Below, piece by piece: positions 14,844 through 63,039 of a stretch of 64,000 bases of DNA. Position numbers and translations under genes: made by a program. The first letter of the stretch is position 1; each line of letters opens with the position of its first letter. This DNA is from an uncultured Eubacteriales bacterium. Lineage in GTDB: Bacteria; Bacillota; Clostridia; Peptostreptococcales; Anaerovoracaceae. The DNA lies in the NCBI GenBank assembly GCA_900315895.1, contig ONAY01000002.1, positions 7,165 through 71,164 on the forward strand. The letters are read 5' to 3'. The notes under the pieces are model-generated. The model was not told the DNA's origin and did no database searches. It worked only from the letters and a program-made list of their open reading frames with translations.

Positions 14844-15488
14844 TCAATTCTCCTTTATAGCATTATGTTTAAACCAGTTACAGTATTCGTTTATGGGACA
14901 TGTATCGCACTTCGGTCTCTGGGAACTGCAGATCCTTCTCCCGTGAAATATCAATAGATGATGGGCTTCAGTCCATCTGTCAGAAGGTATGGCCTTCATC
15001 AGAGCCTCTTCTGTAGAGAGAACATCCTTTTCATGAGCCAATCCTATCCTGTTGGATACCCTGAACACATGGGTGTCCACAGCTATCCTCTGTTCTCCGA
15101 AGCCCTCTGCCAGAACTACATTTGAGGTCTTGCGTCCCACTCCCGGAAGACTCATGAGTTCTTCCATGGTGCCGGGGACCTGACCATTGAATTCCAGGGC
15201 AAGTTTTCCCGAAAGTGCAATGATGTTTTTTGCTTTGGTTCGGTACATCCCGATGGTTCTTATGATCTCCTGGACATCAGTTTCATCTGCGGATGCAAGG
15301 CTTACCGGATCAGGGTACTTGCTGAAAAGCAACGGTGTCACCTTGTTTACTGACTTATCCGTGGTCTGGGCAGAGAGGACGACAGATATGAGAAGCTGAA
15401 ATCTGTTGCCGTAATCCAGGGCGCATCCGGCCTCAGGATAGGTCTCTTTTAATATGTCAAGTACTTTTACTACGTCTTTATTCTTCAT
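14844..15488 (-). CDS. nth: Endonuclease III
   Basis: HhH-GPD LMSLPGVGRKTSNVVL, catalytic VDTHV, Fe-S cluster C-x6-C-x2-C-x5-C (CSSQRPKCDTCPINEYC). Confidence 0.95.
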   Translation of the reverse strand: MKNKDVVKVLDILKETYPEAGCALDYGNRFQLLISVVLSAQTTDKSVNKVTPLLFSKYPDPVSLASADETDVQEIIRTIGMYRTKAKNIIALSGKLALEFNGQVPGTMEELMSLPGVGRKTSNVVLAEGFGEQRIAVDTHVFRVSNRIGLAHEKDVLSTEEALMKAIPSDRWTEAHHLLIFHGRRICSSQRPKCDTCPINEYCNWFKHNAIKEN

Positions 15489-15547
15489 TGATTTTATCCA
15501 CAGCCAGTGCTAAAATTGTATACGATTTGATCTTTATGGAGGAAATC

Positions 15548-16216
15548 ATGGCTGAAATCGATTATTTATCCAGGGTATTGCCCGAATCATTATCTCCTCA
15601 GGAGGCCGCAAAACAACAGATCACCATTGATATCCTTACCGGCACCATTCATCCGGGTCAGAGGCTGATCGAAAGCAAGCTTTGTGACCGTTTCGGTCTT
15701 TCCAGGCCTCCCTTAAGGGAGATCATCAATCAGCTTGCCTCTGAAGGGTTCGTCGACCTAATTCCCAACAGAGGTGCCTTCGCTGCAAGCTTCGATTCCA
15801 GGATCGTCGGAGACATCCTCTTTCTGAGGAATCTGCTCTATCCTCAGGCTGTACGCTGGGCCATAGAGAGGATAACCTCAGATGAATTAGAAGTTCTCAT
15901 GGAGACCTTCAGTTTTATAAGCTTCTATACACCTACAGGCAATATCGACAAGCTTCTGAGATTCACAGAAGGTTTCGACCGTCTTATGTACAGAGCATGT
16001 AAGGATCCGGAAGTCAGGCGCACTCTGGAAAAGTATGATCTGATCCTTAAATATACATACCAAGGAGCAAGTCTTCCGGGAAACTATGCCGAAAGCCTTC
16101 TCAGCGAATACAAGGCGATCTATGATGCCTTCACCTCCAAGAATCCTTCCGCCGGAGCTGAGGCTGCCAGAAAGCATCTGTTCTACAGCACCCTCCGCGC
16201 CAGCCGCAAGGTATGA
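15548..16216 (+). CDS. GntR-family (FCD-type) transcriptional regulator
   Basis: wHTH ESKLCDRFGLSRPPLREIINQLASEGFVDLIPNRGAFA, helical FCD-like C-terminus. The ORF-track start at 15488 is TTG. The ATG at 15548 follows GGAGGA; the ATG at 15536 is an alternative. Confidence 0.82.
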   Translation: MAEIDYLSRVLPESLSPQEAAKQQITIDILTGTIHPGQRLIESKLCDRFGLSRPPLREIINQLASEGFVDLIPNRGAFAASFDSRIVGDILFLRNLLYPQAVRWAIERITSDELEVLMETFSFISFYTPTGNIDKLLRFTEGFDRLMYRACKDPEVRRTLEKYDLILKYTYQGASLPGNYAESLLSEYKAIYDAFTSKNPSAGAEAARKHLFYSTLRASRKV

Positions 16217-16933
16217 TCACATCAAAATATTCATCAGTGCGGATACTATAGGCGATATTATACGTCCGGTCAGACCGAATATGATTATCACCATGAGGAT
16301 CAGGGATCCCCTTCTGTATACCGGAAGCCACCAGTCGTACTTCTTTAGATTGAACAGCTGAGTGACTATTCCCCATCCGTCCAAAGGAGGACAAGGGATA
16401 AGGTTGAATACCATGAGAAGGATATTCATATATACCACGTACACGCATATCATGTACAGATAGTAGATCGCATCCGATGCTCCGCTCTGATAGGTGGCAG
16501 CAATTCCCTTAGCTATAAAAGAGAATATGATGGCAACCACCAGATTGACGGTAACGCCGGCTATAGAGACGATGAACTCGTCTCTTCTTTTGCTTTTGTA
16601 GAAGACAGGGTTTATCTCTACAGGTCTTCCCCATCCGAACCCTGCGATCAACAGGAACAGAAAACCCATCGGATCAATATGTCTAAGAGGATTAAGGGAC
16701 AATCTGCCCTGTGCCTTTGGAGTGGGATCCCCTAACCAATATGAGGTGTAGGCATGACCTGCCTCGTGAAGAGAAATGCCGATGACTATCCCGGGAAGCA
16801 TCAGAATTCTTGAAATAATGGCTTCACCCAGGTCTTCTGTTCCGTTCAGCACCCGTTCTACTATCAGTATTCCTATGAAGACCCAAAACAGTGGGTCCAT
16901 ACTATTAAAAAATCTTTTGATCTTATCCAGCAT
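16217..16933 (-). CDS. M50 (site-2 protease family) membrane metalloprotease
   Basis: HEAGHAY zinc motif and NLIPCPPLDGW. Start set to the ATG at 16933 (MLDKIKRFF), just after the upstream stop at 16941. Confidence 0.85.
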   Translation of the reverse strand: MLDKIKRFFNSMDPLFWVFIGILIVERVLNGTEDLGEAIISRILMLPGIVIGISLHEAGHAYTSYWLGDPTPKAQGRLSLNPLRHIDPMGFLFLLIAGFGWGRPVEINPVFYKSKRRDEFIVSIAGVTVNLVVAIIFSFIAKGIAATYQSGASDAIYYLYMICVYVVYMNILLMVFNLIPCPPLDGWGIVTQLFNLKKYDWWLPVYRRGSLILMVIIIFGLTGRIISPIVSALMNILM

Positions 16934-16940
16934 AAAACTA

Positions 16941-17999
16941 TTATCCTTCGTAAAGGATGCGCATGATAGAACCATATGTTCCCGCATCCAGATCAGGTTC
17001 CTGGGCATTATCCTGCCCGGGGTAACTGTTTCCTTCTATGAGGAGGGGTCCCTTGTCAGCGCTTACTGCCACGTCCCAGCCTACATAGCCAACCTGAGGA
17101 ACAACTCTCGCAGCATCGTCCACCAGCTGAACTATCTGATCCCACAGAGGGATCTGGAAGCCCTTAAGGGTGATCCCTGACTCAGGCACAGTCTTATATA
17201 CCCCTCTTTTCTTATCGTAGCCGTCAGAGATGACAACTCCGGTGTTCAGGTCATACACGACGCCGATGCCACCTGCATTGAAGTTGTCCACGAATATACC
17301 GTTCTGTCCCATTCTGATACCGCCGGCAACGATCTTGACAACGTCACCCTTAAGTATGGTTATGACTCTGATGGTATTGACGGAGGTGGAACAGAGAAGG
17401 TCCATGGTCTCGTGCTGCCTTACAACCTCCTCTACCAGGGGTTTTGAATCCATTACGAGATGGTCGTAAAGCTTTTCAGGATCCCAGTCGGATACTTTTA
17501 TCTTTTCTATCCCTGTGCCGCAGCTGAGTCCAAGGGGTTTGGCGATGATATATTCTTTATCACTTATAAAGGCTTTAAAATCATCTAAGCCTTTTCCCTC
17601 CACTCTGGCCTCAGGAGGAAGAGCCGTGCCCTGTGTCTCGCCATACATTACACCCTCGCCCACCAGCATCCAGTCTCTCTTTATGAAGTCCGAAAACTTC
17701 TTGTTGAACATGGCCTTGCTTTCGAAGTAATTGATGTACCTCGGGTCGTTGAACTGCTTATAAAGCTTGTTATTCTTTCCGACCGTAAGGATCTCCGCCC
17801 TCTGTTTGCTGTTCTTTTCATACATTCTGAAAGCTTCGTAGTCCACATGACCTGAGCCATATTTCAGAGTGCAGAAATAGATGTCAAGGAGAACGGCTCT
17901 CCAGGGCTTCCCTGTGATGGCCGAGACTCTCTTGGCGGTCTGGGTGAAGCGGGAAAGGTCAAGTCCCTTTAATTTTTTGAGGTAGAACGAAAGGTTCAT
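16941..17999 (-). CDS. ATP-grasp ligase, sugar-transfer-associated type (ATPgrasp_ST-like)
   Basis: N-terminus LLDIYFCTLKYGSGHVDYEAFRMYEKN...FNKKFSDFIKRDW and the C-terminal GWDVAVSADKGPLLIEGN pattern are typical of this family as I recall it. 4-nt overlap with the upstream gene. Confidence 0.68.
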   Translation of the reverse strand: MNLSFYLKKLKGLDLSRFTQTAKRVSAITGKPWRAVLLDIYFCTLKYGSGHVDYEAFRMYEKNSKQRAEILTVGKNNKLYKQFNDPRYINYFESKAMFNKKFSDFIKRDWMLVGEGVMYGETQGTALPPEARVEGKGLDDFKAFISDKEYIIAKPLGLSCGTGIEKIKVSDWDPEKLYDHLVMDSKPLVEEVVRQHETMDLLCSTSVNTIRVITILKGDVVKIVAGGIRMGQNGIFVDNFNAGGIGVVYDLNTGVVISDGYDKKRGVYKTVPESGITLKGFQIPLWDQIVQLVDDAARVVPQVGYVGWDVAVSADKGPLLIEGNSYPGQDNAQEPDLDAGTYGSIMRILYEG

Positions 18000-18709
18000 A
18001 GGGTCCTCCTAAGCTCTCTGAGCCTGTATTCATAGGCTTCCATGGCTTCTTTCTCGAAGGGTATCTTATCCTTCAGACCGAGAAGTCTCAAGATGTATTT
18101 AAGGAAATGAGGGTTCATGATGAAGCATGGTCCAAGGGAATAGGTTGCAAAGAAATTCTTTACATGCACCCCTTCTCTCTTGGTGTCCGGATTCATGCCG
18201 ATGCCCTTATATATCTCGATGAAATAGTTGTCAAAATCACCGTAGCTGAAGCTGTACTGGCTCCTGTGTCCGAGAAGGATCATTCCATCAAAATATCCGA
18301 TATACTGGGAATTGTGGCGCATCTCCTTCATGTGTCTCACTGACTTATAGTCGAAGATGGAAAGGCCTCTGATGAAGATCTTTTCGTCGCTCATCACCTC
18401 GTCCCCTTCAATGGCGGTACCGAAGATCTCAAGAGCGTTTCCCGTTACAAGGAAGATCACGCCCTTCTGGATCGCATCGATGAGCTGGTCCCTGTAAGGC
18501 ATAAGAAGTTCCATGGTCTTCTCCTGCTTTTCCTCGGTCATGCAGCCCATGTAGACCATGTCCGCCTCCCCCTTGGCAAAGAGAGGCACGTCTCCGGGAT
18601 GAGTCTCAACTATGTTGATCTCATCGCTGCATCTTTTCAGATACTCCATATTGTAGCTTTCACCATAGATATTGGTGTATTCAGGAAAGATAAATTCTAC
18701 GTTCTTCAT
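17996..18709 (-). CDS. GatD/CobQ-type glutamine-amidotransferase-like protein, apparently lacking the catalytic Cys and His
   Basis: Collinear with GatD (DMVYMGCMTEE, LIDAIQKG, REGVHVKNFFATY). The nucleophile elbow reads VTGNALEIFG (Gly90) and the His position reads YSLGP (Leu192). Confidence 0.7.
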   Translation of the reverse strand: MKNVEFIFPEYTNIYGESYNMEYLKRCSDEINIVETHPGDVPLFAKGEADMVYMGCMTEEKQEKTMELLMPYRDQLIDAIQKGVIFLVTGNALEIFGTAIEGDEVMSDEKIFIRGLSIFDYKSVRHMKEMRHNSQYIGYFDGMILLGHRSQYSFSYGDFDNYFIEIYKGIGMNPDTKREGVHVKNFFATYSLGPCFIMNPHFLKYILRLLGLKDKIPFEKEAMEAYEYRLRELRRTL

Positions 18710-20065
18710 TTATCTGCCCTCCTTAGCATATCTTACGATGGCGTCTCTCATGTTCTTGGCTTTGGTGACGCAGTCAGTCTCAAAGAGCACGTATACCTTG
18801 CTGATACCCTCCCGGTCAACATTCTGAGGAATATCAGCCTCGTCCTCAACTGCTGCGATCTTTTCCTGTGGGATCCCGGCAAGAAGCATCCTGAGCTTGT
18901 GGTTAAGATACATGTGGCCGCCTACTATGATCTTCTTGATGTTGGGACTATTCAGGAATTCATAGTCTGTTTCATAGAGCCAGGTGAGAGTTTCTGTTGG
19001 GTGATTCTTGTCCTGGACCTCATCCATGAGGAGGACCACATCCTTGTCTGAAGGCTCCTTTGCCATGTATTCAAATACCACCGATGCTGCAGAGACGTTC
19101 TGGGATTTGGCGGCAAATGCGATGTAATCGATGCCGTTATACTCAACTCCGTCCTCTCTGATCTTGGTCACCGTCTGTCCCTTGAGGAAATCGGCGATGG
19201 TCTCCTCCTTGTAGCCCAGTTCGCTTAACATGGCCACCACGGACAGAACATTGAATGCGTTGAAAACTGTGTCGGAGATCAGCGGATACTCGTGTCCGTT
19301 CACCTGCATCTTACGATTGACAAGATCTACAGAATCCGCAAAGTAATCCGCCTCAGGATTCTTGAAGTCACAGTTTGCACAGTGGAACTTGCCGATGTGT
19401 CTGTAATGTCTGTAATCATATAATATCTTGCCTCCGCATCTTGGGCAGATGGCGATATCTTTAGATATATTGGAGAAGGGATCGGTCTTGGTGTCTCCCA
19501 TGGCGAAATACACGTTTCTGCCATCTCTGTTGAGCTCGCAGGAGATTGGGTCGCTTGCGTTCAAAACACCCTTCGTATGGTCTCCAAGAAGCCTGAAGGT
19601 ATGCTCGATATGGTTGAAAATGTTTTCAGGATGACCGTTTCTCCTCAGGCTGTCTTTACAGATGTTTGTAACGAATATGTAATGAGGCTTGATCCTCGGC
19701 ATATAGGTATCCAACGACAGTTCATCAGCCTCAAGTATGGAGCAATCAATCCTGGAATGGTTGAAGATGTTCACTCCTCTCATGAGGTTCACAGCGTAGC
19801 CCGCCATCATATTGGCTCCCCAGTCATTAAAGGAAGTTTTGAGTCCCTGGGACCTGAGGAAGTTGTTTAGAAGCGTGGAAGATGTGGTCTTTCCATCGGT
19901 TCCGGTCACAGTGATGACAAGCTTAGGCTTCGCGATCCTTTCGAGAAAATCCGGGCATATCTTGCAGGCCAGAAGACCCGGCATGTCCGTCTTGGGAAAT
20001 CTCTTTAAATTGTAAAAGATCTGCATGAGCTTCGCAGCCCAAAGCGCAATATAGAATCTTAACAT
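18710..20065 (-). CDS. MurT-like Mur-ligase-family protein (central Mur ligase domain + Cys4 ribbon + DUF1727-like C-terminus)
   Basis: P-loop VTGTDGKTTSS, NDWGANMMAG, LNASDP, zinc ribbon CPRCGGKILYDYRHYRHIGKFHCANC, C-terminal TLTWLYETDYEFL. Its stop TAA abuts the ATG of the GatD-like gene. Confidence 0.8.
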   Translation of the reverse strand: MLRFYIALWAAKLMQIFYNLKRFPKTDMPGLLACKICPDFLERIAKPKLVITVTGTDGKTTSSTLLNNFLRSQGLKTSFNDWGANMMAGYAVNLMRGVNIFNHSRIDCSILEADELSLDTYMPRIKPHYIFVTNICKDSLRRNGHPENIFNHIEHTFRLLGDHTKGVLNASDPISCELNRDGRNVYFAMGDTKTDPFSNISKDIAICPRCGGKILYDYRHYRHIGKFHCANCDFKNPEADYFADSVDLVNRKMQVNGHEYPLISDTVFNAFNVLSVVAMLSELGYKEETIADFLKGQTVTKIREDGVEYNGIDYIAFAAKSQNVSAASVVFEYMAKEPSDKDVVLLMDEVQDKNHPTETLTWLYETDYEFLNSPNIKKIIVGGHMYLNHKLRMLLAGIPQEKIAAVEDEADIPQNVDREGISKVYVLFETDCVTKAKNMRDAIVRYAKEGR

Positions 20066-20075
20066 TTGATCTCCT

Positions 20076-21548
20076 TTACAAAATATCCGTTAAAAGCATT
20101 GATATGCTCTCTTTGAACTTGATCCAAATGGATCTGTTCTCATACTCAGCTTCAGTGAGTTCGTGACCCTCTGCCATGTCATTTAAGAATGCGGCTTTCA
20201 TGGTCTTGGCAAAGCCCTTATCGTACACAAAGGCGTTGGTCTCGAAGTTCAATTTGAAGGACCTGATATCGAAATTGCATGATCCTACAGAAGAGACCTC
20301 ATCGTCGCATACCACGGTCTTCGCGTGCAAAAAACCTCCGTCATATATGAACACCCTGCAACCGGCCTTGATAAGTTCCCCTGCAAATGAGTATGTGGCC
20401 CAGTATACGAAGATATGATCAGGTTTACATGGTATCATGACCCTTACGTCCACACCGGACTGAGCGGCCATCTTACAGGATTCTATGATGGACCTGTCCG
20501 GTACGAAATAGGGAGACTGGATGTACACATACTTCTTGGCGGATGTGATCATCTTCATGTAGGCCCTCTTGATCTCCTGGTGAGGGGCTTCCGGCCCGCA
20601 GGAGACGATCTGAACGCCCTTGGTGCCCGGTTTGTTGGACCTGTCGATCTCAGTGGGGATCACCATTTTTTCTTTAGTGGTGAATCTCCAATCCAGGATG
20701 AACCTGCCCTGAAGTTCCTTGACTGCTTCCCCTCTCACTCTTATGTGAGAGTCTCTCCAGTGCCCGAACCTGGGCACAAGATTGCAGTATTCCTTGCCTA
20801 TGTTGTAGCCACCGGTGTAAGCGATCTCGTCATCGATCACTACGATCTTCCTGTGGTTACGATAGTTAAGGTTAAGCCCTACCTTAAGGCCGAACTTGTA
20901 AAGTCTTGGGGGGAAGAAATATCCTACCTTCCCTCCTGCTTCACGGAACTCTCTGGTGGCCCTGTTGCCTATCATTCTGGAACCCTGAGTATCTATAAGG
21001 AGTTTGACCTTCACACCCTGAGATGCTTTGTCCGTAAGAGCCTTTATGAGCTTCTTGCCGATCACATCGTTCTTTATGATGAAGTACTCCACATTGATAC
21101 TGCGCTTAGCCCTGGAAATATCTTCCAGCATCCGATCGAAGAGGACGCTTCCGTCGGTAATGAGTTCAACTTCATTTCCGTCTGTATAGACAGATCCTCC
21201 GTAGACCTGATTGAGCTTCAGAAGATCTTTTTTTGCTTCTGCGGCAGGATTTTCAAGTACAGCCGTTCCCCCGTCCAGATCGTCGATCTGATCGTTCAGA
21301 AGCCTCTCAAAAGCGTCATACTCATCGTCGTAGAGCCTGTTGATCTTCATCCTGGAAAGGTTCTGATTCAGCAAAAGATAGAAGACGAACCCTACGATAG
21401 GTATGAACGCCAGCACCATGATCCATGCCAGTGCTGCAGATGATGATTTCCGCTCAAAAAATATGACCGCAAAAATGAATATGAAATTTATGACATAGAG
21501 TCCGACAGGGATCGCAGCGTAGTGTTTAAGGAATTCATCGAATACCAT
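20076..21548 (-). CDS. cls: Cardiolipin synthase
   Basis: Two N-terminal TM helices and two HKD motifs (HRKIVVIDDEIAYTGGYNIG; HAKTVVCDDEVSSVGSCNFD). Confidence 0.95.
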   Translation of the reverse strand: MVFDEFLKHYAAIPVGLYVINFIFIFAVIFFERKSSSAALAWIMVLAFIPIVGFVFYLLLNQNLSRMKINRLYDDEYDAFERLLNDQIDDLDGGTAVLENPAAEAKKDLLKLNQVYGGSVYTDGNEVELITDGSVLFDRMLEDISRAKRSINVEYFIIKNDVIGKKLIKALTDKASQGVKVKLLIDTQGSRMIGNRATREFREAGGKVGYFFPPRLYKFGLKVGLNLNYRNHRKIVVIDDEIAYTGGYNIGKEYCNLVPRFGHWRDSHIRVRGEAVKELQGRFILDWRFTTKEKMVIPTEIDRSNKPGTKGVQIVSCGPEAPHQEIKRAYMKMITSAKKYVYIQSPYFVPDRSIIESCKMAAQSGVDVRVMIPCKPDHIFVYWATYSFAGELIKAGCRVFIYDGGFLHAKTVVCDDEVSSVGSCNFDIRSFKLNFETNAFVYDKGFAKTMKAAFLNDMAEGHELTEAEYENRSIWIKFKESISMLLTDIL

Positions 21549-36994: not shown

Positions 36995-38272
36995 TTATAT
37001 CAACCTGGCTCTCAGATGTCCGATAAGGTAAAGCGAGCCGGCGCAAACTAAACAATCATAGTCTTTTAAAACCTTTAAGGCTTCTTCAAGGGCTGTATCC
37101 GGGTCGGCGAATGCCATAGCTTTGCCCCCAAGTCCCTCTATTTCAGCTTTCAGTTCATCTGAACTGAGCTTTCTGGGATTATCGGGCTCAGTTACCACGA
37201 AATCAGAAGTTACTGCCAGAAACTGTTTAAGTATACCCTCTCTGTCCTTATCCTTGAGCATCCCTGTGAGCATCAGTATCCGCTTGCCATTTATAAGTTT
37301 ATGGCAGGTCTCCTTAAGAGTCCTGGCTCCGTCAGGATTATGGGCCCCGTCAATGATCACCAGAGGTTCTCTTCTCATGATCTCGAACCTTCCGATCTGT
37401 ATTGCTTTCTTAAGCCCTGCATATATGGCATCAGGACCTATCTCGATGTCGTGATGGTCCTGTAGTACTTCTATGGCCTTAAGGGCGCATACGGCGTTCT
37501 CCACCTGGTGTTCACCCTTCATGGATATCTCCAGCCCATAATAGGTGTTTCCTGGTGTAGCATCGAATTTTGTGCCTTCCAGGGTCTCTTCAATGATCCT
37601 GACTTCTGTATCTTTTGTCTCAAAATACTCAGACCCGGTGTCCTCTGCTTTCTTGCGGAACACTTGAAGGGCCTCTTCCGCTCTGGAAGATGTGACCACG
37701 GGGCAGTTATCCTTGATGATCCCTGCCTTATTGTAGGCGATCTCCGCCAGGGTATTACCCAGTCTGTCAGTGTGATCGAAGGATATGGAAGTGATCACCG
37801 AACAAAGGGGATCCTTGATTATATTTGTGGAATCTCCTATACCGCCCAGTCCCACTTCAAGGACAACGAAGTCCGCGTTCTTCTCCTTGAAATACAAAAA
37901 TGCAACTGCGGTGATGACCTCGAATTCTGTTGGAGAATCCTCTCCCCTGTCGGTAAGGATCTTCACCTTGTCCAGGACCATATCTGTATATTTTGCGAGA
38001 TCTTCGTCGGATATATAGCTGTGATCGAACTCTATCCTCTCATTGAAGACCGTAAGATAAGGTGAAGTATAGAGTCCCACCTTATATCCCTGGGCCTCAA
38101 GGACCTCATAGATGTATTTGCACACTGAGCCTTTGCCGTTGGTACCTGCAACGTGGATGTACTTCAGTCCGTCCTGGGGATCTCCCAGTTCCTTCATGAG
38201 AGAAGTCATCCTCTCCAGGCCCAGTATGCTGCCGAATCTTTCAAATTCATGAATCTTGGAAACTGCGTCCAT
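36995..38272 (-). CDS. folC: Folylpolyglutamate synthase/dihydrofolate synthase
   Basis: Mur-ligase-type P-loop HVAGTNGKGSV, DGAHNPDG; conserved valS-folC order (TAATG overlap). Confidence 0.93.
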   Translation of the reverse strand: MDAVSKIHEFERFGSILGLERMTSLMKELGDPQDGLKYIHVAGTNGKGSVCKYIYEVLEAQGYKVGLYTSPYLTVFNERIEFDHSYISDEDLAKYTDMVLDKVKILTDRGEDSPTEFEVITAVAFLYFKEKNADFVVLEVGLGGIGDSTNIIKDPLCSVITSISFDHTDRLGNTLAEIAYNKAGIIKDNCPVVTSSRAEEALQVFRKKAEDTGSEYFETKDTEVRIIEETLEGTKFDATPGNTYYGLEISMKGEHQVENAVCALKAIEVLQDHHDIEIGPDAIYAGLKKAIQIGRFEIMRREPLVIIDGAHNPDGARTLKETCHKLINGKRILMLTGMLKDKDREGILKQFLAVTSDFVVTEPDNPRKLSSDELKAEIEGLGGKAMAFADPDTALEEALKVLKDYDCLVCAGSLYLIGHLRARLI

Positions 38273-54569: not shown

Positions 54570-56954
54570 TTATTTGTTGCTTTCAGGCTCAAAGTGAGCT
54601 GTACGGTAGATGATGGTGTCCTGTGCGCTCTTGTCAAGTTCTGTGAAGTAGGCCATGTAACCTGCCACACGTACCATAAGACCTTTGTGCCTTTCCGGAT
54701 TGATCTGAGCATCCTTAAGAGTATCTGTGTCAACAACGTTGATCTGGATGTGCTCGCCACCCTCCTTGAAGAAGGTCTTGATGACTCCCTCGATGTTGGC
54801 AAGTCCTCTTTCTCCCTGAACTCCTCTGGGGTCGAAGCGGAGGTTGAATAAAGCTCCGTCATGGAAGGCGCTCTGATCCATGGCTGCTACGGACTTAACT
54901 GTAGCTGTAGGACCGCTAACGTCTCTTCCCATCATGGGTGAAGCGTTGTCGCAGAAGGGTTCGCCCTTCTTACGTCCGTCGGGAGTTGCACCTGTCACCA
55001 GACCGTGGGATACGTTTACTGTCTGAGAGTGAACGTTGAAGGAATACCATCCTCCTCTGGCATCAGGCCACTTCTGAACGTTATCGGCGATGAAGTGCAT
55101 CATCTCACGGTAGATGCCGTCAACGTACTCGTTGTCGTTACCGAACTTAGGCGGCTTGTTCAGAAGAAGCTGACGTATACGCTCCTGACCTTCGAAGTTG
55201 TTATCGCAGGCCCGGATAAGCTCGTCCATGGTGATGTCCTTATCCTTGAAGACGCAGGTGTCGATGGCTGCGATGGAGTCAGCAAGGTTAGCAGCACCTG
55301 TGATGTAAAGTCCGGCTGTGGTGTACTTGGCTCCTCCGTGCTGAACTGAACGTCCGCTTTCAACGCAGCCCTTGGTAAGCATACCTGCGAAAATCACCGG
55401 ATACCTGGTCTGGTGCATGCTCTGCATGACGTTGTATCCGTCACATACCATTCTGTAGTGATGAAGGATCTGCTTCTTAAGAGCAGTCTTAAGGTCCTCA
55501 ACATCCTTGAATTCTCTGGGATCTCCTGTCTTAAGGCCCATGAGTTTGCCTGTATCCGGGTCCACGCCGTTATGAAGTACGAACTCGACCATCTTGCCCA
55601 TGTTGACATAGCCTGCGTCAGGAGAACCATCGGTGGATCCGCCGCCGGGACCAGGCTGGATGCAGCCTACTATGGTCCAGTCGCGAGCTTCTTCAATGGT
55701 GCAGCCCTTTCCAAGAGCCATCTTTATAGCTGTGTTGTCGTTGAAGAATCCCGGGTTGGCCTGTCCATCCTGGATCATCTCGCAACCTTTCCTGATAAGG
55801 TCTTCAGGTGTGCCGTCCCATACTCTGACAGCCATAACGGGCTGAGTGGTCTTGAGCTGATTTGCAGCTTCAAGGCAGAGGTAGGAAAGCTCGTTGGTAG
55901 CATCCTTACCATCCGGAGTCTGGCCGCCTACAACAAGGATCTCCCACATGGGGTATCCTGCAAAGGAAGTAGCATACCAGCGGTCACGGACTTCGAATAC
56001 TTCACAAGCTTTAAGGTAGAAGCACTGAAGCATTTCAAGAGCTTCTTCCTGGGTGATGTTCTTTTCGTCGATGACATCCTTCTTATAGTACGGCCACATG
56101 TACTGGTCGAATCTGCCGAATCCATTGGCTGTCGTGCACACTTCGATGTGGAAGTAAACGTGGGCGAACCAGATCATCTGAAGAGCCTGCCAGAATGTCT
56201 TAGGAGGATTCTCAGGAACCACTCTGCAGTTCTCTGCGATCATGAGCAGTTCTTTCTTTCTCTTCTCGTCGGTGCATTCCGCAGCCTGACGTTCAGCCTC
56301 ATCAGCCATTCTGTGGGCATATGTGATCAGGCCCTGGCACTGAATAATGCAGGCCTGCCAGAAGTTCTTCTTCTCTTCGTCAAGCTGACACTTGGGATAC
56401 AACGCATCGATGTTTCTCTGGCACTCTTCCATATATCCTTTGAGTCCTACGGTGAGAAGTTTCTCATGGTCGCAGGTGGTCTCACCGGATACTCCGTTGG
56501 TGAGGCCAACTGTGATTATGTCATCCTCCATGCACTCAACAGTGTGCTTGGGAAGTGCGGACTTGGCGATATCCTGCATGGCCTTTCCTTCCCAATAAGG
56601 CAGGCACTCAAGGATCTTCTCTCTGTCCTCAGGTGAGACATCGTAGGGGTCCTTAGTTCTTACCGGGAACTCGTCAAGTTCTTCAAGATAGAATTTGGTG
56701 CTGGACTGAAATTCCGGATGAAGATTGGCTCCTAAAAATTTATTGGTAGGTGTGCCTACCACGAGTTCGTCTTCCATGATGAGTGTTGTCATGTGCTCCA
56801 TGATGTAGTTGACGACCTTGGCACGGAAGATGGGCACAGCCTCTCCTGCGAATTTTTTATATGCTTCAGTCTGAAGCACTAACCTTTCAGAAGTGATGCA
56901 GGGTCTTGAATCCCAAAGTTTGTTGCGCATTTTCTGAAGACGTTCATTAAGCAT
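54570..56954 (-). CDS. Glycyl radical enzyme, PFL2/glycerol-dehydratase-like family, substrate unknown
   Basis: Glycyl radical motif LMVRVAGYMAYFTEL near the C-terminus. Cys loop WTIVGCIQPGPGG (Cys codon 55662-55664, Gln codon 55656-55658). ATG at 56954 follows GGGAGGA. Confidence 0.95.
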   Translation of the reverse strand: MLNERLQKMRNKLWDSRPCITSERLVLQTEAYKKFAGEAVPIFRAKVVNYIMEHMTTLIMEDELVVGTPTNKFLGANLHPEFQSSTKFYLEELDEFPVRTKDPYDVSPEDREKILECLPYWEGKAMQDIAKSALPKHTVECMEDDIITVGLTNGVSGETTCDHEKLLTVGLKGYMEECQRNIDALYPKCQLDEEKKNFWQACIIQCQGLITYAHRMADEAERQAAECTDEKRKKELLMIAENCRVVPENPPKTFWQALQMIWFAHVYFHIEVCTTANGFGRFDQYMWPYYKKDVIDEKNITQEEALEMLQCFYLKACEVFEVRDRWYATSFAGYPMWEILVVGGQTPDGKDATNELSYLCLEAANQLKTTQPVMAVRVWDGTPEDLIRKGCEMIQDGQANPGFFNDNTAIKMALGKGCTIEEARDWTIVGCIQPGPGGGSTDGSPDAGYVNMGKMVEFVLHNGVDPDTGKLMGLKTGDPREFKDVEDLKTALKKQILHHYRMVCDGYNVMQSMHQTRYPVIFAGMLTKGCVESGRSVQHGGAKYTTAGLYITGAANLADSIAAIDTCVFKDKDITMDELIRACDNNFEGQERIRQLLLNKPPKFGNDNEYVDGIYREMMHFIADNVQKWPDARGGWYSFNVHSQTVNVSHGLVTGATPDGRKKGEPFCDNASPMMGRDVSGPTATVKSVAAMDQSAFHDGALFNLRFDPRGVQGERGLANIEGVIKTFFKEGGEHIQINVVDTDTLKDAQINPERHKGLMVRVAGYMAYFTELDKSAQDTIIYRTAHFEPESNK

Positions 56955-57028
56955 TTTAGTTCCTCCCATTATTCGATCTGTGACCGACATAAATATATAG
57001 AGTGTTAAAATCTCATTATTGCAGCTTT

Positions 57029-57841: not shown

Positions 57842-59935
57842 CTATGCCCTTCTGGTCAGCATGGTGACAGTCGATAGCATACTGAGAAGTACTCCCAAGG
57901 TGACAATATGAAATACCATACCATTTGAGCCGGTATCAGGAAGGCCGTGCATCTTCACATCAACCATGACAACCTTATCAGTCGGTACTCCGCCCACTAT
58001 TGTGTTACCTTCCCTGTCCACTTCGAATTCTACATCTTCAGATGCAAGATATCCTGGAGGCGCAGACTTTTCGATCAAGTAATACGTTCCTTCTGCTAAG
58101 GAAAAGACTGAATGATCATCTTCCGTGGTGGTCCATTCATCCAGTACAGTCCCTTCGCTGTCACATAGCTGAAGTTCTGCTCCGGAAAGGAGGTCACCAT
58201 ATTCATCCACCTTTGAAAGTACAGTTTGGTTTGACACGTACACCACCTCTATGCTGTGGTCACTATGGATATCGTTGAACTGATATGAGTCGGTATAAAG
58301 AGATATATCCTGAGATTCACCATCCACCGTGACTGTGCTTAGGTGATGTCCGGGATCAGGTGAATATTCTACCAGTCCGTCCTCTCCTTCCCATAGTGAC
58401 AGATCATCTGTGATGGTTCCATTGGTCACGGCAGTTGATACAGTATACCTTTTACCATAAGTTACCGTTACATGGTGGTCGGCCTGCACATTCTCAAAAG
58501 TGTAGCCTTCTTCGTGGCCGGATGTGTCTATCTGCGTCCCGTCCACATCCATGCTCTTAAGTACGTATCCTTCGTTTCCATGGTACGTTAGGTCCACCCT
58601 TCCTCCCGGGGCCACCCAGTATGATGCTTCACTTTCTGTATCCGAATCCCCTGCTCGGCCATTTATTACCGTAAGATCGATCCTGTACTTTCTGTCAAAT
58701 TCCACCTCATACCGATAGTCCTGCTGAATATTGGTAATAGGCATAATATAAGGATCTGAATTCATCACCTCATTTGCACTATAGCTTCGGACCAGGGTCT
58801 CCCTGGAATGAGGGCCCACTGAATATAGTCTTACGGCAGAGATATAGTATTCGTCCGCAGGATCTATAACGCAATTTACGTTCATCCCGCAGGATACCGT
58901 AACATCCACAGGGTCGATACTGCCTTCTCCTCTTATGATCTTTCCCTTCACATTATAGTACTTGGCGAATTCATAGGCCTCCTGACCGATGATGGTGGTT
59001 CCAAGAGACCTGAAGCCAAACCATCTGAGGGTGCTTCCGGTAGAGTCGAACAGCGCAGCAAAACCCGATCTCCAGGTGTTTTCATCCGCAACAGTTCCGC
59101 ATATCCGGTAGCAGTTTTTTGCTCTATCAAAAGAAACATCCGTGATGGTATTCGGCTCCATATAGATCGTCGGTTCCTCCCTGTTGGTTCCGCTTAACAC
59201 TCCGGATATTATGTTGTAACCCTCTAAATATGAATCGAAATCTCTTGATCCGTAAAGAAGGGATCCCTTTGGAGCATTATCATCAGTTCCCGGCATAACG
59301 ACTCTGAATTCATACTCGTACTCCACCTTATATCTTCCGTATGAAGTGGGAGCATGGGTCGTAGAACCGTAATTGTCATAGGCCGTAGGATTAGTCGATA
59401 TAATAGGGTCATTTTTCTCCTGATAATAGAACAGATTGACTCCTACCAAGGGGTCCCTTGTGCAGTATGCCGGGTCAGGCGTAATGATCAGATTCTTGAT
59501 CAAAAGGATCAGGTCAAATCTGTCGCCGGCTCCGTTCTTAACAGAATCAGCGATCCTGACCATCGCTATATCTCCCGGTATCTCCTTGGACTCGGTATTG
59601 TCTCCGAAGCCTCCTCCCGTATAGATAAGTGAGGTCATATAGCAATCGTGAAGACCACCCTTGTAATAGTACCTTTTCAGCTGAAATAGCTCTGTGTTTA
59701 GAAGATCGATTGAAATCTTGTCTGAAGAAGCGGGGTTGCCGTAGATATAATCATAGCCGGTCACATTTTCCACACCCGTTGTCCTGTCAAGAACAAGATC
59801 ACCTTCGGAATAGATCCCGGGAGTAAAGGCAGGCACACTTTTTCCTGCCAAAGGATCGTCTTCTCCAAAAACCGAAGTGATAGGCAATAGGGTCAGCACT
59901 AAGGCAAACATTATCACAATTATCTTTTTCATCAT
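57842..59935 (-). CDS. LPXTG-anchored surface protein, candidate pilus tip adhesin
   Basis: Signal peptide MMKKIIVIMFALVLTLLPITSVFGE, about 300-aa N-terminal region with no motif I recognise, tandem Ig-like repeats. CnaB-type domain with E-box-like YYLIEKSAPPGY; sorting signal LPDTG + hydrophobic helix + RRA. Confidence 0.8.
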   Translation of the reverse strand: MMKKIIVIMFALVLTLLPITSVFGEDDPLAGKSVPAFTPGIYSEGDLVLDRTTGVENVTGYDYIYGNPASSDKISIDLLNTELFQLKRYYYKGGLHDCYMTSLIYTGGGFGDNTESKEIPGDIAMVRIADSVKNGAGDRFDLILLIKNLIITPDPAYCTRDPLVGVNLFYYQEKNDPIISTNPTAYDNYGSTTHAPTSYGRYKVEYEYEFRVVMPGTDDNAPKGSLLYGSRDFDSYLEGYNIISGVLSGTNREEPTIYMEPNTITDVSFDRAKNCYRICGTVADENTWRSGFAALFDSTGSTLRWFGFRSLGTTIIGQEAYEFAKYYNVKGKIIRGEGSIDPVDVTVSCGMNVNCVIDPADEYYISAVRLYSVGPHSRETLVRSYSANEVMNSDPYIMPITNIQQDYRYEVEFDRKYRIDLTVINGRAGDSDTESEASYWVAPGGRVDLTYHGNEGYVLKSMDVDGTQIDTSGHEEGYTFENVQADHHVTVTYGKRYTVSTAVTNGTITDDLSLWEGEDGLVEYSPDPGHHLSTVTVDGESQDISLYTDSYQFNDIHSDHSIEVVYVSNQTVLSKVDEYGDLLSGAELQLCDSEGTVLDEWTTTEDDHSVFSLAEGTYYLIEKSAPPGYLASEDVEFEVDREGNTIVGGVPTDKVVMVDVKMHGLPDTGSNGMVFHIVTLGVLLSMLSTVTMLTRRA
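58235..58687 (-). repeat. Two clear tandem ~75-aa protein repeats inside the adhesin (a third, degenerate copy extends to about 58960)
   Basis: aa 417-496 and 497-567 share Y.(I/V)...V.NG......G......Y....G..L....VDG.........Y.F..(V/I)..DH.(V/I).V.Y. Confidence 0.55.
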
Positions 59936-60564
59936 ACCTTGCTACCTCCTTCCTCACTTCTTGAGATCAACAGGCCTACAAGAAGCATCACCGATGAAAT
60001 TAATAATACGGTCTCACCTCTTAATCCCATTTCATCTCCTGTCTTGGGATTGACCTTATCCTTTAAAATAGTTGTCTTGGGGTAGCAGACTACGTCATAG
60101 CCTTCTTCGCTTGGAACCGATATCAAAAAGGGCTTCGCGGTTTCACACTTCTGAGACATTCCCTTTCCTCCTGTTTGAGTCACAAGATATATGCCCGTCT
60201 CAAGGTCCGGAAATCTTATGATTCCATCCTTGTCCGTGGTTCCTTGGATGTCCCAGTCATCCCTTCCTTTTGAGAGTTCTTCGGCCAACAGAGCCGTTTC
60301 TTCAGCTGACAATTTAAAAAGGTTCACCTGTTCCTTATTACCTTCTGAAGGCAGCTTCCCTTCGTAGTCCGTTACTCTCTTAATACCAAACACTGCCCCA
60401 TCTATATTTGTGACTTTACCTCCATCACTTACCCTGTAGCAAATCTCCAGGCTACCGGTCTTCCCTTCCGCCAATACATAGCAGGGAAAGAGGGCTATAA
60501 AAAAGATCGCCAAAGCTATGGCGATCCTGATATGTTTCTTGTTATTGATTCCTCCATACATCAT
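59932..60564 (-). CDS. Small single-domain pilin with canonical pilin motif and NPKTG sorting signal
   Basis: Signal peptide, CnaB-like DKDGIIRFPDLETGIYLVTQT, PFLISVPSEEGYDVVCYPKT (pilin motif VxVYPK). NPKTG + TM (VLLISSVMLLVGLLI) + charged tail. Confidence 0.75.
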   Translation of the reverse strand: MMYGGINNKKHIRIAIALAIFFIALFPCYVLAEGKTGSLEICYRVSDGGKVTNIDGAVFGIKRVTDYEGKLPSEGNKEQVNLFKLSAEETALLAEELSKGRDDWDIQGTTDKDGIIRFPDLETGIYLVTQTGGKGMSQKCETAKPFLISVPSEEGYDVVCYPKTTILKDKVNPKTGDEMGLRGETVLLISSVMLLVGLLISRSEEGGSKV

Positions 60565-61424
60565 TCACTCTCCTGTCTATTTTTTGATGTTATAGATATT
60601 GTTATTAAAACCACTGCAGATAAACTTATGATGAGCATGGTAAGGTACAGCGGAAGCCCATGTTTTGCGTCATCCACCGGATCTGTCCTTTGCACTTCAT
60701 TTGGAACTCTCTTTCCCCTGACCAGAAGCCTTTTGGTATTGATGCCGTAGGGTGTACAAGTCAGAAGGGTCACATAGTCTTTGTCGGGTTCTATCTTTAG
60801 AGCCTCGATCTCATCAGGCTCCACTACCGTTATCTGATCCACCTCATATGTCAGGATGCGATCCACAACGTGGATGTAGAATCTGTCACCCTCCTCCAGT
60901 TGATCCAAGTCCGTAAACAATCTTGCTGAAGGCAGCCCTCTATGAGCGCATAGTACGGAGTGGCTTCCCAAACCTCCTACGGGAAGAGAGGTGCCTTCTA
61001 TGTATCCAACACCCTTCTCCAGCACCTCTTCCCCCGTTCCATGATAAATGGCCAAAGTCTCGTTTATCTTCGGTACATCCAGATATCCCATTACCCCTGT
61101 ACCCTGCGGGTCCAGAAGACTTGAGTAGGAATCTGAAAGCCCATCATGGCAGTCATCTGAAAATGCATCCTTCACATAGTTTCTTTTATGGGTACTGTTG
61201 TATGCCAGTGCTTCAAGGTACATTGAATCATTTTCATCTTTTCCAGCGTCAGATATGGCATCTTCATATGCCACCGCCACCTTGAGATTCCTTTCGCGGT
61301 TGATCAGGTTGCTTACCGTAGGATAAAAAACGAAAGCTGCTCCGGCAACATAAAGGGCCAGGATCATGATCATCATTGGTCTATTTGCCTTCCCATGGCT
61401 GAGATCTGTCCTTCTCCTTCTCAT
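60561..61424 (-). CDS. Class C (pilin-polymerising) sortase
   Basis: N-terminal TM, VLCAHRGL (His), TLLTCTPYGINT (Cys), LLVRGKR (Arg), C-terminal TM LYLTMLIISLSAVVLITISI typical of class C. Confidence 0.92.
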   Translation of the reverse strand: MRRRRTDLSHGKANRPMMIMILALYVAGAAFVFYPTVSNLINRERNLKVAVAYEDAISDAGKDENDSMYLEALAYNSTHKRNYVKDAFSDDCHDGLSDSYSSLLDPQGTGVMGYLDVPKINETLAIYHGTGEEVLEKGVGYIEGTSLPVGGLGSHSVLCAHRGLPSARLFTDLDQLEEGDRFYIHVVDRILTYEVDQITVVEPDEIEALKIEPDKDYVTLLTCTPYGINTKRLLVRGKRVPNEVQRTDPVDDAKHGLPLYLTMLIISLSAVVLITISITSKNRQESE

Positions 61425-62968
61425 CCTTTCTCAGGTCTTGAAGCTCTTCTCCCAGTCACAAGGATGGTTCCTGCAAGGATGGCAGTAATACCTATGATCG
61501 AGTAGATCACCGTGCCTGTTCCACCTGTTGCGGGCAGATTTTTAAATGCAGTGTTTGGGATGTTCCCGTCCTTACCATCAGCCAAAGGAGTGGAAGTATA
61601 CGTTTTATTCATAAAATCATTTCCATCCTGATCAGTAATGGTGACTGTATAGCTGGAAAGTGTTTTGTCTGAGCCGTATACAGGACTTATTGTGACCGTG
61701 TAGGTATTCTGGTTAACTGCATATCCTTCCGGGGCCTTTGTCTCTCTCATGGTGTATGTGCCCTCTGACAAACCGGAGAAGTGAACGATACCATCATCAT
61801 TTGAAGACTCCAAGTATGAAACATCGTCTCCTGTTGTATTGGTGCCTGTAAGACTGAATCCTGCCCCCGGGAGGGCCAGTTCACTATCCTTTGAGTCCAC
61901 CTTGGTAAAGCTCAGATCGAATGAGTACACTACAGATTCTGCCTTGGGGCTTCCCGGATCAGAGGGATCATCATATGCCGTTGCTCCTCCCTGAGATGAT
62001 GGATCGTTTGAATAGACTATCTTCACCCTGTTATAGTTTCCCTGGAAGTCCAGTCCCGCATCTTCATTGAGGATTCCTTCGTACTTAATGGTCACCGATG
62101 TGCCCCCATGGGAAAGTACCCAGGCCGATTTAAAGTCTACCGTCAGGGTCTGGCCGGTAAGGCTTACCTCATAATTTGTCTTATCCACTACAGTTCCTGC
62201 TGCGTCCTCAACGGACACAGAGCTCTCATTGAATGTAAGTCCGGGATCTGCCGTATCCACCATTCTGAATGTCACGTTTTTGTAGACGGACTCATCATAG
62301 CTGGGTATGGCTGTGGTGACCACGTAATCAATGGTGTCATTGTATGAAAAAGATCTGATACCATCTTCTGTTTCCTTGGTCACCGTAACTTTAGAATGCT
62401 TGACCTCCGTGACTCCCCCTGTAACTGTCCAGCTTCCTGTGCTCATATCAAGTGAGCCTGCGCATATCTTGGATTCATTGTCATATCCAATGGATACGAT
62501 GGCAGGATTATAGATGTTTCCGCTAACACCCTTGACCAGCACTAGATACATTCCGGCTCCCAGGTCACCGGATCTGTAGGTGCATGCACTGGACCCGTCG
62601 CCCAATTGATGAGAGTCCGCAGGTGTCACATCGCTGAGCTCCAGTGCAGGCAGAACAAGGCTCCCATCCTGGATATCGCAGGTAATGGCCTGCACTTCTT
62701 CCAGTGTGGGCTCTTCAAGATCTGCGATGGAAACTCCTGCAACCGTTTCATATCCTGTAAGTCCAGCAGATGAATAGCCGGCATCTGCGATCTTGTAGGC
62801 CTTGACCGTGGCACCATGTTCGATGTTGGTCACCGCAATAGTCTGTGTGTCCTCAGCTGAAGGCATAGACGAAGCTTGGATCGATGCCGATACTGATGCA
62901 GGACATAATGCCATCGCCATTACCGCTGCGGACACCGCAGTCTTTGCTAATAGTTTTTTGAATTTCAT
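61421..62968 (-). CDS. LPXTG-anchored isopeptide-domain fimbrial protein (major-pilin-like)
   Basis: Signal peptide MKFKKLLAKTAVSAAVMAMALCPASVSA, VTVTKETEDGIRSFSYNDTIDYVVTTAIPSY, CnaB domain with E-box YTMRETKAPEGY. LPATG + TM + RRASR. ATG at 62968 follows GGAGAG. Confidence 0.85.
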   Translation of the reverse strand: MKFKKLLAKTAVSAAVMAMALCPASVSASIQASSMPSAEDTQTIAVTNIEHGATVKAYKIADAGYSSAGLTGYETVAGVSIADLEEPTLEEVQAITCDIQDGSLVLPALELSDVTPADSHQLGDGSSACTYRSGDLGAGMYLVLVKGVSGNIYNPAIVSIGYDNESKICAGSLDMSTGSWTVTGGVTEVKHSKVTVTKETEDGIRSFSYNDTIDYVVTTAIPSYDESVYKNVTFRMVDTADPGLTFNESSVSVEDAAGTVVDKTNYEVSLTGQTLTVDFKSAWVLSHGGTSVTIKYEGILNEDAGLDFQGNYNRVKIVYSNDPSSQGGATAYDDPSDPGSPKAESVVYSFDLSFTKVDSKDSELALPGAGFSLTGTNTTGDDVSYLESSNDDGIVHFSGLSEGTYTMRETKAPEGYAVNQNTYTVTISPVYGSDKTLSSYTVTITDQDGNDFMNKTYTSTPLADGKDGNIPNTAFKNLPATGGTGTVIYSIIGITAILAGTILVTGRRASRPEKG

Positions 62969-63010
62969 TTCTCTCTCCTTTTCCCTTTTGAAATATTGTG
63001 TATTTTGTGT

Positions 63011-63039
63011 ATAAAAAAACGGCATATGAAATGCCGTTT
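63011..63039 (-). terminator. Intrinsic terminator after the DHHW gene
   Basis: AAACGGCAU-UUCAU-AUGCCGUUU (9 bp) followed by UUUUAUAC. Confidence 0.8.

Follow-up and report, generated by a model that had tools for sequence, protein, structure and literature searches.

A MurT-like ligase, a GatD-like partner without glutaminase residues and an ATP-grasp ligase: a candidate envelope amidoligase module of gut and rumen Clostridia

We analysed a window of 64,000 nucleotides, the whole stretch from position 7,165 to 71,164 of contig ONAY01000002.1, which derives from an uncultured Eubacteriales bacterium of the family Anaerovoracaceae. On the minus strand of this window lie four consecutive genes encoding a ligase that resembles MurT, a protein with the fold of the amidotransferase GatD that lacks the glutaminase residues (hereafter pseudo-GatD), an ATP-grasp ligase of the ATPgrasp_ST family and a small M50 metalloprotease (Table 1). 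The four genes are translationally coupled: the stop codon of the MurT-like gene abuts the start codon of the GatD-like gene (TAA then ATG, 18710/18709), the GatD-like stop and the ATP-grasp start share ATGA in a 4-nt overlap (17996-17999), a gap of 7 nt (16934-16940) separates the ATP-grasp stop from the M50 ATG at 16933, and an AGGAG-type ribosome-binding site precedes each of the four starts. The M50 open reading frame (ORF) was first listed as 16217-17008, and the ATG at 16933 is better placed than the in-frame ATG at 17008. The stop codon of a cardiolipin synthase gene (cls) lies 10 nt upstream of the MurT-like start. Scans for promoters and terminators were uninformative on the limits of the operon because they returned no more sites than shuffled controls. 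A preliminary description, made from the letters of this DNA without database searches, had proposed the four coupled ORFs, their abutment, overlap and gap, and the family labels MurT-like, GatD-like, sugar-transfer-type ATP-grasp and M50; the ORF list and a reading of each junction bear out the former, and hidden Markov model searches the latter.

Table 1. Genes of the block and the gene preceding it, with positions in the window and profile matches
Feature	Position	Strand	Product	Assignment
MurT-like Mur ligase (clade T1)	18710..20065	minus	451 aa	Mur_ligase_M 34.7 bits and MurT_C 63.1 bits (Pfam); presumed ATP-dependent carboxylate-activating subunit
Pseudo-GatD (clade D1), GatD fold without glutaminase residues	17996..18709	minus	237 aa	GATase_3 29.9 bits
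ATPgrasp_ST carboxylate-amine ligase	16941..17999	minus	352 aa	PF14397 160.1 bits (Pfam gathering threshold 31.4)
Small M50 metalloprotease	16217..16933	minus	238 aa from ATG at 16933	PF02163 41.9 bits (threshold 27.2)
Cardiolipin synthase (cls), immediately upstream, context only	20076..21548	minus		TIGR04265 532 bits

The MurT and GatD equivalogs are the best NCBIfam matches of the first two proteins, at 147.8 and 126.4 bits for the MurT-like protein (cutoff 800) and at 47 and 26.3 bits for the GatD-like protein (cutoffs 450 and 400). NCBI rules would not name the two proteins MurT or GatD, because 148 and 47 bits compare with cutoffs of 800 and 450. With both proteins this far below the equivalog cutoffs, the sequences support the earlier proposal that the module is not a canonical lipid II isoglutaminyl synthase.

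The ligase itself is intact and specifically MurT-like, with its ATP-binding and carboxylate-activating machinery and its GatD-binding surface retained. In phmmer searches against PDB chains it matches Staphylococcus aureus MurT (7Q8E/6GS2) with an E value of 3e-41. It carries the P-loop VTGTDGKTT, the motifs WGANMMAG and EADE, the Cys4 ribbon CPRCG...HCANC, MurT_C and the Trp of the GatD interface, and its amphipathic N-terminus aligns with the corresponding segment of S. aureus MurT. The MurT hallmarks on which the preliminary description had relied (P-loop, Cys4 ribbon and a DUF1727-like region) are thus confirmed by the Mur_ligase_M and MurT_C matches and by the E value. Across the 96 MurT-like proteins examined, the P-loop, the G-A/S-N and D-E motifs and the Cys4 ribbon are kept, and the interface Trp is present in all except three (93/96). 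Structural work connects these features with the binding of ATP and of GatD, with Mg2+ coordination and with the acceptor carboxylate.

The surface that faces the amidotransferase differs from that of canonical MurT. Asp349 of S. aureus MurT lies opposite a Thr in the window ligase, after a 4-residue insertion, and this column holds T, N or F and never Asp in the MurT-like proteins (0/96); in addition, the DNAAD motif is replaced by DEVQDKNHPTE. Activity of S. aureus MurT is severely reduced by D349N (PMC6113224, PMC5871853). The preliminary description had recorded loss of the triad Asp, and this holds for the residue and for DNAAD, but a Glu one residue upstream of the Asp349 column (E-x-x-x-W) is kept in 93/96 proteins, so that the acidic residue has moved rather than disappeared outright. 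A clade-specific interface loop, D-S-x-x-R-N-[GA]-H-P-E, with the His present in 84/96, stands where canonical MurT has RDQMDRFGE, and the S. pneumoniae structure paper proposes that this loop forms one wall of the ammonia channel. Sub-clades differ in the loop equivalent to DNAAD, while the pocket motif of pseudo-GatD hardly varies. As a separate observation, the H-P-E triplet of the interface loop resembles the His-Pro-Glu of classical triad amidotransferases, but is located on the ligase subunit.

The partner of this ligase has the fold of GatD. Its AlphaFold2 (AF2) model, with a predicted local distance difference test (pLDDT) score of 89, compares with S. aureus GatD (5N9M/6GS2_A) at template-modelling (TM) scores of 0.81-0.82 and includes the GatD-specific C-terminal helix (219-236). 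In phmmer alignments with the S. aureus, S. pneumoniae and S. pyogenes chains, V-T-G90-N-A falls opposite T-I-C94-G-G of GatD and S-L192-G-P opposite L-H189-G-P, and the elbow and oxyanion glycines of GatD are also replaced. The model places Gly90 at the nucleophile elbow, at the junction of strand 85-89 and helix 90-96. Structure-chain alignments and the model therefore agree with the earlier reading that the catalytic Cys has become Gly90 and the catalytic His Leu192, and no Cys or His was found in the active site. Arg131 aligns with R128, the glutamine-sequestering residue of S. aureus, and is kept in 91% of representatives. The S. aureus GatD variants C94G, C94S, C94A, H189A and R128A are all inactive (PMC6113224, PMC5871853). 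Because the Cys, the His and the elbow glycines are replaced, and because the equivalent S. aureus mutants are inactive, glutamine hydrolysis by the GatD-like subunit is not credible, in agreement with the preliminary description.

The replacement is a stable character of a large family. Loci of GTDB species representatives (80), further loci and the window together provided 107 GatD-like ORFs, all of which (107/107) lack both Cys and His and have Gly or Ser in the nucleophile column. An exhaustive profile search of 1.84 billion representatives returned 222 clusters at E <= 1e-30 and 741 at E <= 1e-10 (clusters at 50% identity), and the clade comprises at least 222. Cys and His never occur together among the 150 best, diverse representatives (Cys alone in one, His alone in one), and the catalytic-His column is L, I, V or T across the clade. 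The motifs T-G-N-A-x-E-x-F-G and T-Y-S-L-G-P are near-invariant in 121 close homologues, in which T89, G90, N91, E94, G97, T189, S191 and G193 do not vary at all, and at least 90% of the clade keeps Gly16 (the contact of the MurT Trp), Glu59, Asn91 (which replaces oxyanion Gly95) and Arg131. A search for a conserved alternative nucleophile found no Cys, Ser or His kept clade-wide at or near the pseudo-GatD site.

This subunit is also under strong purifying selection. Compared with its closest relative (locus L007), pseudo-GatD has proportions of non-synonymous (pN) and synonymous (pS) differences of 0.044 and 0.68, and this pN is the lowest among the block's five genes; the corresponding ratio of substitution rates (dN/dS) of about 0.03 is approximate, as synonymous sites are saturated. 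In four representatives, MurT and pseudo-GatD are fused (P0252, of 728 aa and with its domains verified by Pfam, P0288, P0292 and P0370). Recent decay of gatD is ruled out by the invariant replacement motifs, the dN/dS and the fusions. The label "dead" that the preliminary description gave to this partner is misleading, given that no gene of the block is under tighter constraint and that its pocket, though remodelled, is conserved. We predict that pseudo-GatD is a functional pseudoenzyme in a physical complex with the MurT-like ligase. Since the ligase machinery and GatD surface are kept, the partner is conserved and sometimes fused, and the Cys-His pair is lost, the complex is most readily seen as obligate and its GatD-like subunit as non-catalytic. 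Departures within the ligase were seen in the P0012 lineage: one metagenome-assembled genome (MAG) has its MurT-like gene divided into two ORFs (L004 6625-7981), and in its sisters L005 and L015 the gene is intact but divergent, without E-x-x-x-W and with the P-loop GKSMT. These may represent decay or assembly error.

The third gene encodes a protein whose AF2 model has a pLDDT of 92.8. Its fold is nearest to RimK, Ddl, ArgX/LysX and GshB, generic amino-acid and peptide ligases, at TM scores of 0.36-0.44; a helical domain at its N-terminus, some 100 residues long, is without a match, and the protein has no match among PDB sequences. An assignment of function from structure was dropped, as only generic folds at TM of about 0.4 and no PDB sequence match were available. 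Invariant in 30 homologues are K154, E190/E191, D309, E322 and N324, which we take to lie in the ATP/Mg site from general knowledge of ATP-grasp enzymes rather than from residue-level superposition, and their conservation fits an active site. Pfam describes the ATPgrasp_ST family as linked to surface-polysaccharide synthesis.

The MurT-like, GatD-like and ATP-grasp genes stay together in different genomic settings. At least four flanking contexts, unrelated to one another, contain the trio, which upholds the expectation, drawn from the preliminary description, of a conserved neighbourhood. A neighbour-joining tree of the MurT-like proteins annotated with gene context distinguishes four groups; T1 is followed by D1 and the ATP-grasp gene in every informative locus except L045, and two clades have a single pair without ATP-grasp. 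In many relatives, the ATP-grasp gene is flanked by a second, paralogous MurT-like/pseudo-GatD pair (T2/D2) that is also without Cys and His (L001 10143-12283, L006 9736-11846, L013, L016, L017, L019, L022, L023, L027, L035, L037, L040, L041, L045 and L046). T2/D2 is absent from the window's own lineage, yet present in L013 and L016, which share the synteny from cls to the M50 gene; within the 64-kb window there is no second MurT/GatD pair, intact or otherwise. Other arrangements of pairs were also noted. In L047 (2-5058), two T1-type pairs surround the ATP-grasp gene, the second in the order gatD-murT, and the first MurT copy has a degenerate P-loop (LGTDDAADT) and is truncated by the contig start. 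A third, very divergent MurT-like/pseudo-GatD pair, with a TGSA/TGNS elbow, adjoins the T1/D1/ATP-grasp set in L014 (4822-6975) and L028 (6464-8564).

At the level of a single protein of the module, the window is 92% identical to a reindeer-rumen Peptostreptococcaceae MAG. Its relatives are Anaerovoracaceae, including the cultured genera Lentihominibacter, Brotomerdimonas, Baileyella and Mobilibacterium, and farther members belong to Oscillospiraceae, Acutalibacteraceae, Ruminococcus, Lachnospiraceae and Erysipelotrichaceae. Wherever the isolation source is informative, it is gut, rumen or faecal for all loci, and the source names of all members are "hypothetical protein" or "CobQ-like" only. 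A MurJ/Polysacc_synt (MOP) flippase gene lies directly upstream of the single pair in 9/11 Oscillospiraceae-type loci (within L050-L062, e.g. L054 3284-5002), and two distant, stand-alone ATPgrasp_ST homologues are also found beside MurJ-type flippase genes (L087 8037-9692; L092 5431-6939). Recurring neighbours are limited to MurJ-type flippases, VanY, MscL and lineage-specific housekeeping genes; recurrent genes that would hint at a nucleophile, such as those for racemases or decarboxylases, were sought in the examined loci and not found.

Two elements of the preliminary description concerned the surroundings of the trio. Its inclusion of the M50 protease in the module is not supported: the translated protein, product of a co-transcribed neighbour, contains HEAGH and NLIPCPPLDG, and thus both HExxH and LDG, but the module has M50 and cls beside it in just some 17 of about 50 loci, and the protease adjoins it only where lineages have the cls-to-M50 synteny in common. 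We therefore rejected it as a component. The remark that the block follows cls in a run of envelope genes is correct for the window, where the block lies within a cls-plsY-gpsA-uppP region, but does not extend to a general rule, because cls is upstream in some lineages only.

Among known systems, the closest is MurT/GatD itself (S. aureus 6GS2/7Q8E, S. pneumoniae 6FQB, S. pyogenes 9SQ9), with which the module shares its two-gene order, its folds (TM 0.82 for GatD, E 3e-41 for MurT), the MurT hallmarks, the Gly16 contact of GatD and the glutamine-sequestering Arg. It differs in the replacement of Cys94, His189, the elbow and oxyanion glycines, MurT Asp349 and DNAAD, in scores far below the equivalogs, in the interface loop D-S-x-x-R-N-G-H-P-E, in the coupled ATP-grasp gene and in the second pair of its relatives. 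A more distant parallel is provided by Enterococcus faecium and Lactococcus lactis, in which a D-aspartate ligase of the ATP-grasp type (Aslfm/AslA) and AsnH build a D-iso-asparagine cross-bridge. The group amidated by AsnH is the alpha-carboxylate of a side-chain-linked D-acidic residue and is chemically like that of D-iso-Glu. By analogy only, both systems would have an ATP-grasp enzyme and an amidating enzyme acting in succession on one peptidoglycan precursor; here, however, the ATP-grasp protein belongs to ATPgrasp_ST, without a detectable match to Asl, and the amidating enzyme is MurT-like rather than asparagine-synthetase-like.

The preliminary description had likened the Mur-type ligase and ATP-grasp pair to cyanophycin synthetase. 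CphA1 does combine an ATP-grasp and a Mur-type ligase, both of which form amides through acyl-phosphates, but it is a single polypeptide with a specific N domain, whereas the module has separate proteins, a MurT-specific ligase and a GatD-fold partner. The NCBIfam cyanophycin models match only over the P-loop (NF010623, 17.1 bits against 877; TIGR02068, 14.4 bits against 850). The analogy is thus formal: the MurT match has an E value of 3e-41 against 1e-3, and the MurT-specific ribbon, MurT_C and Trp are kept. Divergent relatives of MurT that are independent of an active GatD are also known as the archaeal "MurT-like" ligases of pseudomurein producers, whose genes have no GatD homologue at all (PMC11915815), unlike the present clade, which always keeps a GatD-fold partner. 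We found no description of the Cys/His-less GatD clade, of ATPgrasp_ST function or of Anaerovoracaceae wall chemistry in the searchable literature.

The interpretation that we tentatively prefer, at a probability of about 0.42, is that these genes constitute a conserved envelope amidoligase module derived from MurT/GatD that is independent of glutamine and uses ammonium on lipid-linked peptidoglycan precursors. The complex would phosphorylate a free carboxylate of such a precursor on the inner side of the membrane and convert it to an amide. A link to lipid-linked precursors is suggested by the MurJ-type flippase genes beside single pairs and beside distant ATP-grasp homologues, and by the envelope genes around the block in the window. 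The nitrogen would not come from glutamine hydrolysis, and its most likely source would be free ammonium, plentiful in the gut and the rumen. Ammonium might be caught at the remodelled acidic interface of pseudo-GatD and MurT (T-G-N-A-x-E, Arg131, the MurT H-P-E loop and E-x-x-x-W) and then travel through the inherited tunnel. The coupled ATP-grasp enzyme could work on the same precursor, perhaps attaching a side-chain-linked acidic residue such as a D-Asp or D-Glu bridge; the free alpha-carboxylate of this residue would then be the T1 substrate, by analogy with the D-Asp ligase and AsnH of enterococci and lactococci. In relatives, the T2/D2 pair would amidate another carboxylate.

Several considerations favor free ammonium. 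The canonical S. aureus enzyme accepts NH3 as donor and still needs GatD when it does so (Munch 2012, as cited in PMC6085368). The pocket is acidic or polar and the same in all sub-clades, while the loop on the acceptor side is sub-clade specific; a near-constant pocket with a variable MurT loop would fit one common small nucleophile and different acceptor carboxylates. Moreover, the clade is confined to ammonia-rich gut and rumen anaerobes, and the GatD site is too distant from the MurT active site for direct attack by a bound amino acid. Nevertheless, several points weigh against this interpretation. The substrate, a carboxylate of a lipid-linked peptidoglycan precursor, is one that we infer from homology and gene context alone. 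If NH3 is the nucleophile, then the need for an elaborate conserved pocket is hard to explain. Two paralogous pairs plus an ATP-grasp enzyme would suit a multi-step peptide-building pathway at least as well. Finally, the role suggested for the ATP-grasp enzyme is drawn by analogy, not homology, from a protein without a close structural relative or PDB sequence match.

Such a peptide-building pathway would arise if the nucleophile were, as the preliminary description had suggested, an amino acid or an amine such as a diamine, joined to the alpha-carboxylate of D-Glu or to another stem-peptide carboxylate of lipid II, with T1, the ATP-grasp enzyme and T2 acting one after another to assemble a side branch or a type-B-like (position 2) cross-bridge. 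This is the main rival of direct ammonium use, which is the simpler idea. We consider it doubtful, though it accounts for the clustering of up to three ATP-dependent carboxylate-amine ligases (T1-D1-G-T2-D2), reminiscent of stepwise MurC-F, and for the sub-clade-specific remodelling of the MurT loop that is homologous to the amino-acid-recognition motif of MurE (the DNAAD/DNPR region). The substitution of Glu94 for the conserved elbow Gln of GATases and a pocket enlarged by the change from Cys to Gly could likewise suit a charged amine, Arg131 is retained, and the ATP-grasp fold is like those of amino-acid and peptide ligases. However, the GatD site lies >20 Å from the MurT gamma-phosphate even in the modelled closed state (PMC6113224), so that a ligand in the pseudo-GatD pocket could not attack directly; the pocket is nearly identical across sub-clades, which would not be expected if each pair bound a different amino acid; and the single-pair clades have no further ligase nearby. 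In a broader form of this proposal, which we regard as rather unlikely, the lipid-II peptide ligases would have diversified as MurC-F did, each paralogue adding a specific amino acid or diamine and the ATP-grasp enzyme a further residue. If true, many gut Clostridia would have undescribed branched or position-2 (type-B-like) cross-linked peptidoglycan whose builders have never been identified genetically.

It is improbable that the product is instead a polymer other than peptidoglycan, such as a cyanophycin-like branched polyamide, a poly-glutamate-type capsule or a peptide-substituted secondary wall polymer, of which the Mur-type ligase and the ATP-grasp enzyme would be the two amide-forming activities. 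This is the pairing of cyanophycin synthetase, to which there are weak NCBIfam matches (E 1e-3); Pfam's link of ATPgrasp_ST to surface polysaccharides points the same way, and the neighbouring MOP flippases (Polysacc_synt/MurJ) also export other lipid-linked glycans. But the Zn ribbon, MurT_C and GatD partner make the ligase MurT-like (E 3e-41, as opposed to 1e-3 for cyanophycin synthetase), the neighbourhoods show no recurrent glycosyltransferase or polymerase genes, both single-pair clades lack ATP-grasp, and the block is surrounded by housekeeping genes of the envelope and not by a capsule locus. Less probable again is a purely regulatory pseudo-GatD that binds glutamine or glutamate through Arg131 and switches the ligase according to nitrogen status. 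Retention of the glutamine-sequestering Arg and a polar pocket despite lost catalysis, and the sameness of that pocket in all sub-clades, would be explained, although ligand binding is purely putative and a sensor leaves the nucleophile unnamed and overlaps the other models rather than replacing them. Finally, it would be most surprising if the module were a glutamine-dependent isoglutaminyl synthase after all, with an unconventional nucleophile such as Thr89, which precedes Gly90 in most members, or Cys56, found in many D1 proteins on what was the oxyanion strand. Across the clade, no Cys, Ser or His is kept at or near the site, position 56 is C, S, T or A, S. aureus GatD is inactive as C94S or C94G, and the elbow glycines are lost too.

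MurT/GatD is an essential drug target in staphylococci, streptococci and mycobacteria, and amidation of D-iso-Glu and of the diamino acid governs transpeptidation, sensitivity to lysozyme and antimicrobial peptides, and sensing by NOD1/NOD2. Much of what counts as MurT/GatD in Clostridia belongs to a separate clade, the amidotransferase subunit of which would be unable to hydrolyse glutamine, and the gut and rumen Clostridia of this clade, abundant commensals, probably modify their peptidoglycan by a route not yet worked out. Either the wall is amidated directly from ammonium or something else is attached to it. With the ammonium route, the module would clearly exemplify both the retention of a pseudoenzyme subunit and adaptation to a habitat rich in ammonia; another attachment would mean that genes for a type of peptidoglycan branch or cross-bridge had been identified for the first time. 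Both outcomes can be tested in the cultured members Lentihominibacter hominis, Brotomerdimonas butyrica, Baileyella intestinalis and Mobilibacterium timonense. The module is large, conserved and experimentally tractable, and represents a relative of MurT/GatD that fails the defining catalytic features of both subunits.

Elsewhere the window consists of ordinary chromosomal genes, with recA, obg, ftsK, uppP, plsY, gpsA, der, ftsY, smc, plsX, folC and valS. A GntR/FCD regulator gene on the plus strand (15488-16216) converges on the M50 gene and ends at the adjoining base (16216/16217), a layout repeated in L004, L005 and L007. Another gene of the Mur-ligase family (36995-38272, 425 aa, Mur_ligase_M and Mur_ligase_C) adjoins valS; this is the usual folC arrangement and has nothing to do with the module. 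At 54570-56990 lies the gene for an 806-aa glycyl-radical enzyme of the pyruvate formate-lyase type; the genes near it, which encode an iron-type alcohol dehydrogenase (Fe-ADH), an FGGY kinase, a class II aldolase and a class III aminotransferase, suggest a catabolic island. The minus strand also carries a cluster for a sortase-dependent pilus (57842-63025), which encodes two pilins of the SpaA type, a pilin D1 protein and a sortase, and is followed by a gene for a DHHW/AlgX-like SGNH protein (63066-63899).

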